A stretch of DNA of 64,000 bases, taken from Gammaproteobacteria bacterium. Lineage in GTDB: Bacteria; Pseudomonadota; Gammaproteobacteria; Steroidobacterales; UBA11654. Made by a program: the position numbers and the translations under genes. A model generated the notes under the pieces. That model was not told the origin of the DNA and did no database searches. It saw nothing but the letters and a program-made list of their open reading frames with translations. Position 1 is the first letter of the stretch; the number at the start of each line of letters is the position of its first letter. Below are positions 32,192 through 44,309 of this stretch, piece after piece. The stretch covers positions 14,970 through 78,969 of the forward strand of contig JAQWSZ010000017.1 in the NCBI GenBank assembly GCA_029242945.1, written 5' to 3'.

Positions 32192-33670
32192 TTACGGCTG
32201 TAAGCTTGCTGGTCTCAGTGGCTCAACATGCAGTTCCCAAGCTTCATGATCACCTGGCCCTTGGGGTCCAATTTTACCCTCAGCAGATTGGAGCAATACT
32301 TCTGGATGATGAATTACACCGCCTTTAATTATTAATTTGATATTCCTTGTAGCCTTGATATCTTCAAGTGGATTCCCCTTGATAACGAGGATATCTGCTA
32401 GTTTTCCAGATTCTATAGATCCAATCTTATCGGCAACACCAAGTGCTTTTGCCCCGTTAATTGTAGCTGCTTTTAACACAGCAATATTTGGTAAGCCAGC
32501 GTGCACCATTGCATAGAGTTCACGATGATATGCAAACCCTGGCAATAGAGTTGTATAGACCGGTTCATCCGTTCCTACAATAAGAAGGTTTTCACCGCCA
32601 AACTCATACAGTTTATTCAGCTCAAGGACACGTTGAGCATACTCTATTACATCCGATTCGGGTGGTAGCTCACCTCTTCTCTTAAGCAATTCTTGTGCGT
32701 AGGGTGTAAAGTATTTTGCCTCATTGGTCCAAACCATCTCTGCGCCAAGCTCTTTTCTTAGATTAACTCCTCCATACATTTGCAAGTTAGCGTCATAATA
32801 AACTTGATATTGTAGAATCAAATCAATCATTTGTTCCATATCAGCGCTTTCTTCACCGCCGCTACCCAACGTAATCTGATGTTCAAGACGATCTAGCCCC
32901 ATTAAAATCGCATCTCTAGGATGCACATCATATTCCCATTCATAATTGGCCAGATGTCCTGTTGTTGTCATACCATTTTTATGTGCTTGTTCGATTAAAA
33001 TTTTGGTTTCACCGGGCGTAGCTTGTTTGATTTTGATACTGATGACGCCATGTTTTGACCATTTATCAACTTCAGAACGTATCTCTTTTTCTGAGATATC
33101 ATTTGGCCAAGCAGAGCAATCATCTTCTGCGGTTTTAACACTGTATTCGCATCTAAATCCACCAAAATAGGGTCCGGAAGCGAAAAGCCTCGGACCAATT
33201 GCTTTACCATTGTCTATCAAGTCTCGCTGTTTAAGAACTCGTTCGGGGTAATATTCACCAGCAGACCAGGTTGATGTCACGCCATTTGCCAAGAATATAA
33301 TGCCATTGTTGATCACTTCTTCAGCGCGACCAACATCGACGAGATCAAAATTATAGTGTGCGTGCAGATCAATCATGCCAGGTAAAATCGTTTCAGAGTC
33401 AGCCAGGTCTATAATGTTAGTTTCTAAAAGAACATTCTCATCTATATTTGCATCAATGCTAATAATTTTTCCCTCTCGAATCATAATACCTTTATTTTTT
33501 TTGAGAGAATTACTGATACCATCGAACAACCAACCTCCTCTAATTAAGGTGTCATCTGATGGCGGAATTGACCATTGTGCATATGCATTAGATGATAATA
33601 AGAATAGAATGAGAGCTGATGTATTGATTAACTGAGTAATCAAAAAGTTAATTCTGTAATTAGGCTTCAA
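32192..33670 (-). CDS. secreted amidohydrolase-family metallohydrolase
   Basis: LPGMIDLHAH, GVTS, IKIK, LEH, GTD and GSIESGKLADILV. Probable TTG start at 33670 overlaps the upstream stop and gives a signal peptide ending AYA-Q. Start uncertain. Confidence 0.82.
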   Translation of the reverse strand: MKPNYRINFLITQLINTSALILFLLSSNAYAQWSIPPSDDTLIRGGWLFDGISNSLKKNKGIMIREGKIISIDANIDENVLLETNIIDLADSETILPGMIDLHAHYNFDLVDVGRAEEVINNGIIFLANGVTSTWSAGEYYPERVLKQRDLIDNGKAIGPRLFASGPYFGGFRCEYSVKTAEDDCSAWPNDISEKEIRSEVDKWSKHGVISIKIKQATPGETKILIEQAHKNGMTTTGHLANYEWEYDVHPRDAILMGLDRLEHQITLGSGGEESADMEQMIDLILQYQVYYDANLQMYGGVNLRKELGAEMVWTNEAKYFTPYAQELLKRRGELPPESDVIEYAQRVLELNKLYEFGGENLLIVGTDEPVYTTLLPGFAYHRELYAMVHAGLPNIAVLKAATINGAKALGVADKIGSIESGKLADILVIKGNPLEDIKATRNIKLIIKGGVIHHPEVLLQSAEGKIGPQGPGDHEAWELHVEPLRPASLQP

Positions 33671-36416
33671 TATATTTTTCAAAATCGCATGTGTAGTCAT
33701 GAAAAGTATGATTAGGTTCATAGCCAAAAGGTTTCCAGCCTATATGACCATAGCCTCCAGCAATAGATGTCGGCTTAATTAGCCCACCTGTTTGAACTAC
33801 TGCACCAAAATTTTGTCTATTCCTAAACATCATTGGGTCCCAGCCATGATACATATAAAGCATATTTGGCCCCATGGCTGAAGTGACATGAGCCTGTGCT
33901 ATAAATGAACCAGCCTTATTGTGAACTTTAATGAGTTCACCATCGCTTACCCCTTTATTTTTTGCATCATCAGGGTTTATATAAATATCAGGCTCTCCTC
34001 TTTGTAAGCTGAGTAAGAAACTATCATCTCTCCACATACTATGAATACCATGTCTTGCATGACCCATAAGCATCTTCATGGGATAACCTTTATTAACAAG
34101 TGCATCCTTATGTCTGGGTAAAACTTCATCAAACTCAAAAAACCATTCATGATCAATATAAAATTGTTGTCGATGAGTAAGGGTTTTATAACCAATTTTT
34201 TCATTGACGCTGTCAAAAATATCTGAGTAATAGGGTGATTCCTTACTGTGCATCGTTGTTTCTGAACCCTTGTTTCTAATAAAACCTTTTTCAGCAAGCT
34301 CATCATAAGAGACATTTTGTATGCCACTGGTATTATTGAGAAGAAATTGAATCACTTCCTTAACGGATGTGATGGCTCCATTATCAGTGTAATCATCATG
34401 ATATTTTTTAAAGTCTCTTTTGATTGGAACTCCTATGACATTATCGTCAATTGGTTGGAGATTTCTCTCTTTTGCCCTTTGAGCTATAGCTTTTGTCAGC
34501 TTTTCATAAGCAGCCCAATCATCTATGCATTCTCCTAAGGGTTCAACCGCCTTATCAATCACTTGCATAAAAGGCGTTCTAGGTTCTAAATGAAAATCAT
34601 GTTTTTCATAATGATGTGCTATTGGTAGAACGTAGTCTGAGTACATTGCTGTTGTTCCCATATCAGTTGCAAAAGTGACTATTGTATCTAGTTTACCAAA
34701 GGCAGTTTCCCTCCATCGTTTTCCAGATGAACGCCACGCCGCTGCATTAGTTCCTGAAAATATTCCCATCTTCCATGGAACTTTTGAGTAGTCTGGAAAC
34801 CAACCATTTTTGACAGATTGATTAAAGTAATCATCCATCTCTCCTGCTAACTCTTTGCCATAAATATCTTCATTAAATTCTTTCATATTGGCATGAACAT
34901 AATCCCATCTCGAGAGAGTTGCCACTCTAAAAGCAGCAGCCGGATTTTTCATTGCAAATGGAAATACCGCATCGTCTTTTGCAAGATTTGTAATCGTGAG
35001 GCCTCCACCTTCTTTACCTGTATTACCTGTAATACAGAGTAATAAAAAGAAAGCTCTCTGCAGAAGGTCGCCATGAATATATTTTGAAGCACGATATCCA
35101 GCATAAATCATACTAGGCTTTGCTTTTGCAAATTTTCTAGCTACCTCTCTGATTACTTCAGCATTAATACCGGTAACCTCTTCCGCCATTTCTGGTGTAT
35201 GTTCAGCCGCTCTCCTTTTGGTTAATTCGAAGATGGTTGTCACTTCTACAGGGCCATTATTAGTTTCAACCGTCCATTCTCCTTCTAAAGCTGGATTTAT
35301 GCCTTCCAAGGCAATTGAAGGCATTTCAATCAGATGTTCCGGTGTTCCAGGTGCAACTGGTGGCGTTCCTGTTCCTGGTGCAGCGACTAAAGATTTACTG
35401 GCAAGGTCCCAAACATAGAATAGATTATCTTTTGCATCAGTTGAGCTTCTCAAATCTGTTTCTCTTAAGTATTTAAGATTATCCTTTCTCACCAAAAAGG
35501 GCAGATCTGATTGTTCTTTCATATAAGCAGTGTCGTAAGTTTTATCTTCTAATATCGTATTAACCATAGCCATGGCTAAAGCAATATCACTGCCAGGTTT
35601 AGGATTTAACCACTTACTTGCATGCATTGCAGTAGCATTGAAGTCAGGCGATATTGAAATAACTTCAGTACCATTATATTTGGCTTCCCAGAAAAAATGA
35701 GAATCTGGAATACGAGTTACAGCAGGATTACAAAACCAAATTAAACAGCATTTTGATTTATAGATTTCAGCCATGGTATTGCCCAAAGTGACATGACCAA
35801 ATGTAATGTGTGCACCTGAGAATAAGTCACCAACACCTGCAAATGCTTCAGGCATTTGCACTCCACTGATATTCGCAAATCTTAGTAAGCTAGCATAGGA
35901 TGCTCTTTTCATAACCATTTGCGTACCGAGGCCACAGGTTATGGATTCCGGTCCATGTTCAATACTGTAATCTAGAAATTTATCCGCTACTTCTAACATG
36001 GCCTGATTCCATGTAATTCTTTCCCATTTCCCTTCACCTCTATCACCTACGCGTTTTAGCGGGTAGAGAATCCTTTGTTTGCCATACATGTATCTGGAAT
36101 GGCTCAAACCTTTCTGACAACCTCGGGGACCGTAATCAGGTGCATCACTGGATGTTCCATATTCTCCTTGTTGTTCCTCTCTCCAAACAACCCCGTTCTT
36201 CACAAAAACATTGAATGCGCATTGACCTGTGCAATTGGTTCCATGTGTTGAATGAGTAATGCTATCCCAGGTCCATTTTTTTCTAGCAATGTCTTCCCAG
36301 GATCTGTAATTAATGTTTTTATCTTGAGCAATTACAGCATTCGAATAGTGAAGAGATAGTCCAGCGCCTGCTCCGAGTAAAAAATTTCTTCTAGAGGTTT
36401 TTATCTGTTTATCCAT
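33660..36416 (-). CDS. Tat-exported molybdopterin oxidoreductase alpha subunit, DMSO reductase family type II (EbdA/S25dA/DdhA/SerA/PcrA-like)
   Basis: SRRNFL Tat motif, HGTNCTGQC...PRGCQKG FS0 ligands, GD (Asp Mo ligand), NPAVTRIPDSHF and HGIHS. Confidence 0.9.
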   Translation of the reverse strand: MDKQIKTSRRNFLLGAGAGLSLHYSNAVIAQDKNINYRSWEDIARKKWTWDSITHSTHGTNCTGQCAFNVFVKNGVVWREEQQGEYGTSSDAPDYGPRGCQKGLSHSRYMYGKQRILYPLKRVGDRGEGKWERITWNQAMLEVADKFLDYSIEHGPESITCGLGTQMVMKRASYASLLRFANISGVQMPEAFAGVGDLFSGAHITFGHVTLGNTMAEIYKSKCCLIWFCNPAVTRIPDSHFFWEAKYNGTEVISISPDFNATAMHASKWLNPKPGSDIALAMAMVNTILEDKTYDTAYMKEQSDLPFLVRKDNLKYLRETDLRSSTDAKDNLFYVWDLASKSLVAAPGTGTPPVAPGTPEHLIEMPSIALEGINPALEGEWTVETNNGPVEVTTIFELTKRRAAEHTPEMAEEVTGINAEVIREVARKFAKAKPSMIYAGYRASKYIHGDLLQRAFFLLLCITGNTGKEGGGLTITNLAKDDAVFPFAMKNPAAAFRVATLSRWDYVHANMKEFNEDIYGKELAGEMDDYFNQSVKNGWFPDYSKVPWKMGIFSGTNAAAWRSSGKRWRETAFGKLDTIVTFATDMGTTAMYSDYVLPIAHHYEKHDFHLEPRTPFMQVIDKAVEPLGECIDDWAAYEKLTKAIAQRAKERNLQPIDDNVIGVPIKRDFKKYHDDYTDNGAITSVKEVIQFLLNNTSGIQNVSYDELAEKGFIRNKGSETTMHSKESPYYSDIFDSVNEKIGYKTLTHRQQFYIDHEWFFEFDEVLPRHKDALVNKGYPMKMLMGHARHGIHSMWRDDSFLLSLQRGEPDIYINPDDAKNKGVSDGELIKVHNKAGSFIAQAHVTSAMGPNMLYMYHGWDPMMFRNRQNFGAVVQTGGLIKPTSIAGGYGHIGWKPFGYEPNHTFHDYTCDFEKYIEA

Positions 36417-42935: not shown

Positions 42936-43011
<76 letters not shown>

Positions 43012-43369
43012 TTTCTTTTCTATCTATTTCTATACATCTAATTTTAGAACGAGTCTAAAAAGCGCAATAATTAATCTCAATTTAGATGTTTTGAATATTT
43101 TTAATAAAATAACTAAATATATTCATATAAATCAAATAGATAGTATAGAAAAATAAAAAAAAAGTACATAAGCTATTTTTATACATATCAATGCTAAGGT
43201 CGATTCACAAAGAGATAGAGGGTTGCTGCCAAATGTTGTATAAAAACAAATATCATAAGTCTTTTTGACACATCTAGGTGCATTTGGTTGTATGGAATTT
43301 CTTTCTTTTTTTAATTTTCAATTGGGAAAGGGAGAAATAATATTAACCTAATTAGGGGAGGATTTTATC

Positions 43370-43591
43370 ATGGGTAAAATCAAAGGTTGGATCGGAGAAC
43401 TAACTGAAATAGCTGTAGCTTTAGTAGCACTAGGTGTTGCCGCAGGCGTTGTATTTGGAGCTGATGTTCCATTTGTAGGCGCTGTGCTAGGCAACTTGGT
43501 TGATTTAATTAATCAACTAGGTGATGCAGGAGTTGTAGGTATTATTGTACTTGCGATCCTCTCAGGAATGTACGGCTCACGCGGTATGTAA
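43370..43591 (+). CDS. small Gly/Val/Ala-rich hydrophobic protein of unknown function (73 aa)
   Basis: Strong GGGGAGG RBS, its own terminator, and two hydrophobic helices separated by an amphipathic segment. Confidence 0.88.
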   Translation: MGKIKGWIGELTEIAVALVALGVAAGVVFGADVPFVGAVLGNLVDLINQLGDAGVVGIIVLAILSGMYGSRGM

Positions 43592-43637
43592 ATGAGAAAA
43601 AAGCTTTTAAAGTTTTATACTTTTTAAAAAGCAATAG

Positions 43638-43668
43638 AAAGGGCTCTTGTAAAAGAGCCCTTTTTTTT
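43638..43668 (+). terminator. Rho-independent terminator
   Basis: AAAGGGCTCTT-GTAA-AAGAGCCCTTT stem-loop running into a T8 tract. Confidence 0.9.
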
Positions 43669-43709
43669 CTAAATTGGTTATAGTTCTAGTTCAATAGAGG
43701 TCAAATAGA

Positions 43710-44309
43710 GTGTTCAAAAATTTCTTAACTCAACTTACTAAAGTCACTGACTTCTTTATCATTATTGCAACAGTATTTGTAGTTCTTGCTTTTCTCACTC
43801 CGGCAGAGGTTTCAATTCAACCATCGATTAACATAGCTGAGCTGAGTCTTAAGAAAGCTATCAATGATAGGTCACAAATAAATTCAAAATTGGATTCATT
43901 AAGAGAGGAAGAAGTATTATTAAATAAAGAGTTCATGACATTGATTAATCAACCAACAATGGCAATAGATACAGTGACTGGAGAAGCTACAGAAATAATT
44001 ATAGACACCTCAACAGTGGAAGCTCAGATTACTCAAATTAAGCAGCAAATTGATACATCTGTTATGAAACTACAAACACTCAATAATGATGTAATAAAAT
44101 CGGAACAAGAAATCGAAGCTCTTGAGTTAAAAGCGCAATCATCTAAGTCGATTAGTTGGTTGCAGCCGATACGAAAGAATACAATGATTCTGATTAATGC
44201 TGGCGGTGTTGATGGTTTGATTGCTGGATTTGCCTCTCTTATTTTTTGTTTGGTGTATAAAAGAAGAAGAGGTTGGTTTAGGAATGTGTTTGGTATTCGC
44301 CTAAAATAA
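43710..44309 (+). CDS. membrane protein with long coiled-coil insert; probable paralogue of the 73-aa protein
   Basis: GTG start with upstream GAGG. N- and C-terminal hydrophobic helices flank a heptad-rich region. C-terminal part aligns without gaps to the 73-aa protein. Confidence 0.78.
   Translation: MFKNFLTQLTKVTDFFIIIATVFVVLAFLTPAEVSIQPSINIAELSLKKAINDRSQINSKLDSLREEEVLLNKEFMTLINQPTMAIDTVTGEATEIIIDTSTVEAQITQIKQQIDTSVMKLQTLNNDVIKSEQEIEALELKAQSSKSISWLQPIRKNTMILINAGGVDGLIAGFASLIFCLVYKRRRGWFRNVFGIRLK

Follow-up and report, generated by a model that had tools for sequence, protein, structure and literature searches.

A conserved gene pair for predicted small membrane proteins, the longer with a putative coiled-coil insert, in marine Gammaproteobacteria

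Type IV pilins combine an abundant small subunit with a decorated low-copy paralogue, and they are built from an N-terminal hydrophobic helix and a C-terminal head; the class III leader has a glycine at position -1 and a glutamate at position +5. We have analysed a gene pair in a stretch of DNA of 64,000 nucleotides (the window) that resembles this arrangement in its N-terminal hydrophobic helix and in the proposed combination of an abundant small subunit (73 aa, the short protein) with a decorated paralogue (199 aa, the long protein). It differs from pilins in that a second, C-terminal hydrophobic helix is present and that the decoration is inserted into the loop instead of forming a C-terminal head. 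A type IV (including Flp) pilin was rejected: no leader glycine or glutamate is conserved in an alignment of 108 short-family sequences, no pilin family occurs among the Pfam matches of these members at E 0.1, and no peptidase, ATPase or secretin was seen among the neighbours, named by inspection, of 33 loci.

With TatA/TatB (PF02416) the pair shares the adjacency of small membrane paralogues and the succession of hydrophobic helix, FG hinge and amphipathic helix. The hhalign comparison with PF02416 gave a probability of 5% over 13 columns, and TatA/B/E produced no Pfam match; moreover, the short protein has two hydrophobic helices, not one, tatC does not adjoin, and the tatA/tatB genes of this genome are located elsewhere. 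VirB2/TrbC pilins (PF04956) are likewise hydrophobic subunits of about 70 residues. Here, the hhalign probability was at most 1% (the TrbC clusters are small, 6-10 sequences), there is no leader and no T4SS gene is adjacent; TrbC was not found in the window's own genome. ATP synthase subunit c (PF00137) is comparable in size, glycine-rich hydrophobic helices and a possible ring, but hhalign gave 3%, the last helix has no conserved carboxylate, and a normal atpE exists in 12 of 19 relatives. In the window's own assembly atpE and the neighbouring atp genes are absent; since no gene of the atp locus was found while those relatives have atpE, this is likely an assembly gap. An inovirus major coat protein was discarded, as the viral copies lie among T4-like genes and match no named PHROG. 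The motif GxAAGxxFG, which we take to be reminiscent of Romo1/Mgr2 and Tim17, is confined to one clade, and the 108 members are without a Pfam match to these proteins. The analogues put forward in a preliminary description of the window (pilins, filamentous coat proteins and, for membrane rings, the c-ring) all fail or lack their defining features. Its remark that no named system was recognised stands: neither protein is claimed by a known family (Pfam, NCBIfam and PHROG for both, PDB for the short one).

Specifically, neither the short nor the long protein matched Pfam, NCBIfam or PHROG above cut-off, and the deep alignment of 108 short-family members (A3) yielded no consistent Pfam family (best 5/108), no named PHROG and no PDB sequence. 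A Foldseek match with E <0.001 was not obtained for the short protein, its best structural match (Z 5.6, rmsd 4.3, 72 aligned) is unrelated, and the ESM Atlas returned 'hypothetical' clusters only. Fold matches of the long protein (Z 10-12.5) are spread across unrelated generic coiled coils; those to PspA/Vipp1/ESCRT-III and HlyD-type adaptors are of this generic type, again with no Pfam match. Nothing on the short/long family was found in the literature, in a coverage that leaves out most subscription journals. The gene pair is real, conserved and previously undescribed; judged by failed family tests, it appears to lie outside every family tested.

The window derives from a 1.48-Mb genome that is 92% complete. 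The pair lies 3' of a tRNA gene (42936-43008), the sole Rfam match, and 5' of a gene for a metallo-beta-lactamase-fold protein; the nearest named loci among the matches listed belong to Woeseia, Woeseiaceae and uncultured marine Gammaproteobacteria. Both reading frames were confirmed with the start codons and boundaries given in Table 1. Further upstream (33660-36416), inspection indicated a molybdopterin oxidoreductase-like gene with a twin-arginine-like leader, adjoined by acyl-CoA ligase- and amidohydrolase-like genes.

Table 1. Features of the short/long locus (window coordinates)
Feature	Position	Strand	Basis
Quasi-palindromic box TGTTGT-N3-AAAACAAA	43234..43250	+	likely transcription-factor site, conservation-based
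Promoter-like element: TTGACA, then conserved TG..T..AT	43265..43293	+	TTGAC invariant 12/12; function inferred
Strong Shine-Dalgarno AGGGGAGG	43354..43361	+	duplex energy rank 7/1205 genes; conserved
Short ('major') family member, 73 aa, ATG	43370..43591	+	ORF, alignment, AlphaFold pLDDT 87.6
Weak AU-rich hairpin, stop codon to terminator	43603..43634	+	clade-conserved
Intrinsic-terminator-like hairpin and T-run between the two genes	43638..43668	+	folding; conserved
Long gene, 199 aa, GTG	43710..44309	+	
Long protein residues 1-32, N-half of shared core	43710..43805	+	alone weak: hhalign P 9-12%
Long protein residues 33-146, acidic insert, 114 aa	43806..44147	+	predicted antiparallel coiled coil, small tip
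Long protein residues 147-199, C-half of shared core and basic tail (KRRR...)	44148..44309	+	alignment

The short family comprises at least 238 representatives at 50% identity (238 at E <=0.001 in a search of 1.84 billion representatives). Its consensus opens with an amphipathic N-terminus and a conserved T. A hydrophobic helix, an FG..VPF.G loop and an N come next, then an amphipathic helix, LG..GLVG and, at the end, another hydrophobic helix. AlphaFold models the 73-aa protein as three helices (2-29, 36-53 and 55-69) and not as the plain hairpin initially assumed. The gene is patchily distributed, being present in 17 of 19 genomes of the window's family, 19 of 37 of family f153 and 2 of 400 in an even sample of the phylum, and a single match in genome G642 is not common to 60 relatives. 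Apart from SAR86 and SAR92, other small-genome marine lineages possess the family, and even genomes of 1.5 Mb retain the gene, frequently in 2-3 copies. At three f153 loci (L165, L167, L168), 2-3 near-identical tandem copies are located between ubiA and dapD, which suggests selection for dosage. The window's own genome has a second, divergent copy (L002:1501-1713; G000:C5:5146-5358) that is convergent with an isocitrate lyase-like gene; it is without a partner, a strong RBS or the terminator seen in other second-clade copies. One member, P0318, carries a C-terminal extension, presumably resembling a helix-hairpin-helix domain, and a search for longer fused forms gave one match, a 347-aa protein on short contigs.

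Long-family proteins have conserved ends and a variable middle. Insert length ranges from 109 to 238 aa and net charge from -5 to -30 across all 75 distinct relatives, and the insert is often enlarged by 7-residue repeats. The two heptad-rich arms noted earlier are borne out: 83% of the a/d positions are hydrophobic compared with about 20% elsewhere (best of 7 registers), and AlphaFold predicts helical arms at residues 37-79 and 101-144, each about 6.5 nm long, with a small tip (pLDDT 76, 18 sequences). The short IDTVTGE turn between them does exist here, but it is special to this member, as relatives carry longer acidic repeats. Such free variation of stalk length argues against a precise ruler. 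In the long core the FG/PF loop residues of the short family are missing, whereas WxQP.R.N and KRR are invariant motifs of its own; the protein ends in a basic tail (4.7 K/R among the last 14 residues). Within the family, 17 of 20 genomes, including all seven of high quality, have the long gene at one locus each; 299 other genomes of the class gave one marginal match (E 6e-4), to a coiled coil of a longer frame. At one locus (L006:1818-2529) the gene is split by a frameshift within simple repeats that encode the stalk tip, due to either an assembly error or phase variation.

The preliminary description regarded the long protein as a copy of the short one with a coiled coil spliced into its loop, on the strength of 8 identities in 36 ungapped positions. 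The count is correct, albeit not significant alone, and the matching hydrophobic pattern can be traced as an amphipathic/hydrophobic/amphipathic/hydrophobic alternation in both proteins. Core identity between short and long sequences is about 17-24%; BLASTP found no match between them, and hhalign with narrow alignments gave 0.4%. With deep, uncut alignments the probability was 48% and 56% (E ~1e-4), falling to 17% without context pseudocounts, and the C-halves aligned in exactly the register proposed before (D32-S147, 42 columns, E 1.9e-4). The uncut long family scored 23.9 versus at best 17.1 among 26 other membrane-protein clusters, a set that includes TatA/B, AtpE and TrbC as well as some spurious frames. 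When the stalk columns were removed, hhalign reached 89% over 71 columns (E 2.3e-6) with the best cut, which was chosen by us; seven other cuts ranged from 40 to 81% with A3, and all eight cuts from 26 to 80% with A4. None of 360 shuffles attained the best-cut score, and reversal gave 0.2%. The N-half alone is not significant (Table 1).

When 2353 ORFs of the own genome were scanned without gaps for an N-half followed by a C-half, the long protein ranked second with A3 and first with A4 if family members are set aside, and both of its matches sat at the exact termini; one decoy with 13 helices equals it under the broad profile. An HMM built from A3, with no long sequence inside, matched long relatives at both ends and in order (best E 3.6e-4, 3608 ORFs), and its first 70 rows comprise 67 long-family sequences and 3 short-family fragments. 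These long relatives are redundant, scores are weaker for the sequences closest to the window's protein (E 0.05-0.14), and the window's own long protein is a weak match (C-half rank 256/2709). N42, G51 and G54, which hardly vary in the short family, correspond in the alignment to the invariant long-family residues N157, G166 and G169. Statistical support for paralogy with loop insertion is modest though consistent; it comes from deep profiles, the HMM match, the shuffles and the membrane-cluster comparison, and not from BLASTP or narrow profiles. From these comparisons we consider it highly probable that the long-family core is homologous to the short family, and the long protein is likely a paralogue of the short protein with a 114-aa insert in the loop. 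In a tree, the very long branch of the long family (about 5 changes per site) makes placement impossible. Topology tests accepted a grouping with the second paralogue (p-AU 0.51) as well as with the first clade (0.74), and rejected only the long family with the 12 labelled first genes alone (0.015). The tree equally allows an origin from the second short paralogue or by local duplication; since it cannot place the long branch, a derivation from the second paralogue is indicated by gene position alone.

The two genes stay together across genomes. In the window's clade the long gene directly follows the short one at 15/15 loci (three of these long genes are broken by a frameshift, Ns or the contig end). 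Of 80 metagenome loci fetched via the long family, 47 had sufficient upstream DNA, and all 47 have the short gene upstream. Outside the window's family, a second short paralogue fills the same slot at 27/27 loci among the matches listed (SAR86, SAR92, Porticoccaceae and unnamed Gammaproteobacteria). The cultured SAR86 HIMB1674 (locus L053) carries such a short/short pair. Because the flanking genes differ by lineage, the pair represents a conserved unit. The proposed terminator between the genes is also substantiated: a hairpin (43638-43663) precedes a T-run on the + strand, where the terminator scan listed the - strand only; the region folds with a z of -3.17, and all 28 pairs folded have a hairpin, only four of them lacking a clear U-tract. 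The short gene often occurs alone (16/16 second-clade loci, with no long gene within 1.5 kb, 16/19 f153 carrier genomes and 119/119 viral loci), so the long protein is an accessory rather than an obligate partner; by the same token, lone copies in phages and other bacteria imply that the short protein does not require a partner.

The RBS of the short gene is indeed very strong (Table 1), that of the long gene ranking 99 by genome-wide duplex energy, but this asymmetry is not general, with the first-gene RBS stronger in only 13/28 pairs. RNA contigs, which cannot rank genes and give no more than a lead, cover both genes in 4/4 runs; their depth on near-exact pieces was 452 and 187 for the short gene versus 10 for the long gene in run X1, and it was higher for the short gene in X2 and X4 and lower in X3. 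One RNA contig ends at 43642 and two start at 43684; none spans the hairpin. Codon bias carries no information on expression because EF-Tu shows none. A complex prediction for three short and one long protein gave no verdict (score 0.00).

Upstream of the short gene, the core of the quasi-palindromic box is invariant in 12/12 aligned regions. Many relatives have the form TTGTT-N7-AACAA, and the box was found in 48 distinct upstream regions of 66 scanned (duplicates counted), 13-14 nt before TTGAC; the promoter-like element of Table 1 is missing from the list of the sigma-70 scan. The exact 17-bp pattern has 18 matches in 20 family genomes and its reversed control none. Ten of them precede the short gene, seven precede TonB-dependent receptors (five orthologues of one receptor plus two others, of which one shares its box with a transporter gene in divergent orientation) and the remaining match is located where a contig ends; the box-bearing genomes are related and the counts not independent. 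A weight matrix revealed two other equally good sites in the own genome (25.9 and 25.4 bits, the next scoring 19.7). Both (L395:2454-2470 and L396:589-605) are followed after 85-113 nt by genes that encode TonB-receptor Plug and barrel domains. These receptor genes, at C46:2-2368 and C28:43218-46190, are the only 2 of the 15 Plug-domain genes of this genome with a box. Upstream of 11 other family genes checked the box was not seen; it is clade-specific. By itself, the 14-bp core TTGT-N6-ACAA is no more frequent in the window than chance predicts (2 sites, 1.9 expected); specificity resides in the 17-bp form. The box is likely a transcription-factor site and marks a candidate small, clade-specific regulon, and the pair is likely co-regulated with outer-membrane nutrient receptors; the recurrence before TonB-dependent receptor genes offers a new regulatory lead.

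Our best guess, to be taken as tentative, is an abundant inner-membrane oligomer in which a minor subunit holds a periplasmic stalk, as part of a nutrient-scavenging programme. The short protein would be the abundant, self-associating inner-membrane subunit that forms the oligomer, and the long protein would join it as a rarer subunit presenting the acidic coiled-coil stalk in the periplasm. By the positive-inside rule both ends of both proteins would be cytoplasmic: the basic termini, strongly so in the long tail, would leave the stalk on the periplasmic side, together with the loop and the amphipathic helix. The short-gene RBS together with the terminator suggests that the first protein is made in plenty and the second only sparingly, and the high major:minor ratio might be set by terminator read-through or by a weak second promoter. 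The oligomer could act as a membrane scaffold or a small conduit in uptake. The stalk would measure about 6.5 nm in the window's protein and, in the longest relatives, as much as some 17 nm; as a spacer or tether it could extend 6-17 nm in the direction of the cell wall or the outer membrane. The minor paralogue would be optional, plain in SAR86/SAR92 and stalked here, and expressed with selected outer-membrane receptors. A bolder version, which we deem unlikely, envisages a very abundant, unrecognised envelope machine in streamlined marine bacteria: a self-assembling membrane ring or tube of 70-residue subunits that minor paralogues, here with an acidic stalk spanning the periplasm, would cap or anchor. 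It would be co-expressed with TonB-dependent receptors for better nutrient capture, and T4-like phages would carry it for re-engineering the uptake of their hosts.

It is rather unlikely, yet the best of the alternatives, that the paralogues do not build a common particle. In this case the long protein would have diverged to act independently in the periplasm, as a tether, sensor or inhibitor, and its gene would have stayed beside the parent gene solely for joint transcription. The length of the long-family branch, the core without FG/PF residues and with invariant motifs of its own, and the many lone short genes would all fit separate roles. These would explain less well why the second-gene slot behind the hairpin is kept across lineages with different flanks, and why the conserved N and both glycines have invariant counterparts in the long core.

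The phage copies bear on a further alternative. Viral contigs gave 39 and 251 confirmed stretches with two queries, from which 119 loci were retained, each with a single short copy. The copies sit among the T4-like genes gp32, gp59, gp23, gp33 and RegA. Directly 3' of the short gene is csgF(-csgG) at 36 of the 119 loci, a position that recalls the Pelagimyophage curli cluster (PMC7029224). An ammonium transporter follows at 7 loci and a Bmp binding protein at 5, and further copies are near dUTPase/Hsp20 or gp23; in total, the phage gene occupies at least four unrelated contexts. In L184-L222 (e.g. L192:4001-4219), gp32, the short gene, csgF, csgG, a curlin-like and a FecR-like gene occur in this order. 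The window's own proteins and the local alignment matched no viral contig, more distant members did, and four queries against INPHARED phages and PLSDB plasmids detected no family match apart from one chance match (E 0.8). Phage curli clusters have been described with unnamed hypothetical genes; the passages on these clusters do not mention this protein, which the supplements may list (PMC7029224, PMC9599517, PMC9004378).

Conceivably, polymers of the short protein make up a surface filament or a lipid-lined tube, in the manner of major pilins, with the long protein as minor tip or decoration and its acidic stalk pointing outward. The adjoining curli export genes would agree with this, as would the small size and hydrophobicity of the subunit, its very strong RBS, its decorated paralogue, and a variable, repeat-prone insert as in surface-exposed parts. 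We nevertheless regard a filament as quite improbable, because an assembly ATPase, peptidase or secretin is missing among the conserved neighbours, neither a class III nor a VirB2-type leader is present (TrbC profile match 1%), and the phage gene lies in unrelated contexts. That the proteins are unrelated, the long one being an ordinary membrane protein of two helices with a coiled coil in the periplasm and the match reflecting just a common amphipathic/hydrophobic pattern, is very unlikely: the null results of BLASTP and narrow profiles, the loss of score without context pseudocounts and the insignificant N-half are outweighed by two halves that match in order, in one register and at exact termini, above shuffles and membrane decoys, and by the clear short paralogue in the slot at all those other loci among the matches listed.

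The inner-membrane oligomer with a stalked minor subunit remains our preferred reading. This is a widespread marine family (SAR86, SAR92, hundreds of viral contigs) that has had no name, profile or structure. The pair offers handles on it: its topology can be read from the natural insertion site, a switch of stoichiometry is predicted, and a candidate regulon connects it to outer-membrane nutrient receptors. Should the proteins assemble in the proposed way, some of the most abundant bacteria in the ocean would turn out to possess a new envelope structure.
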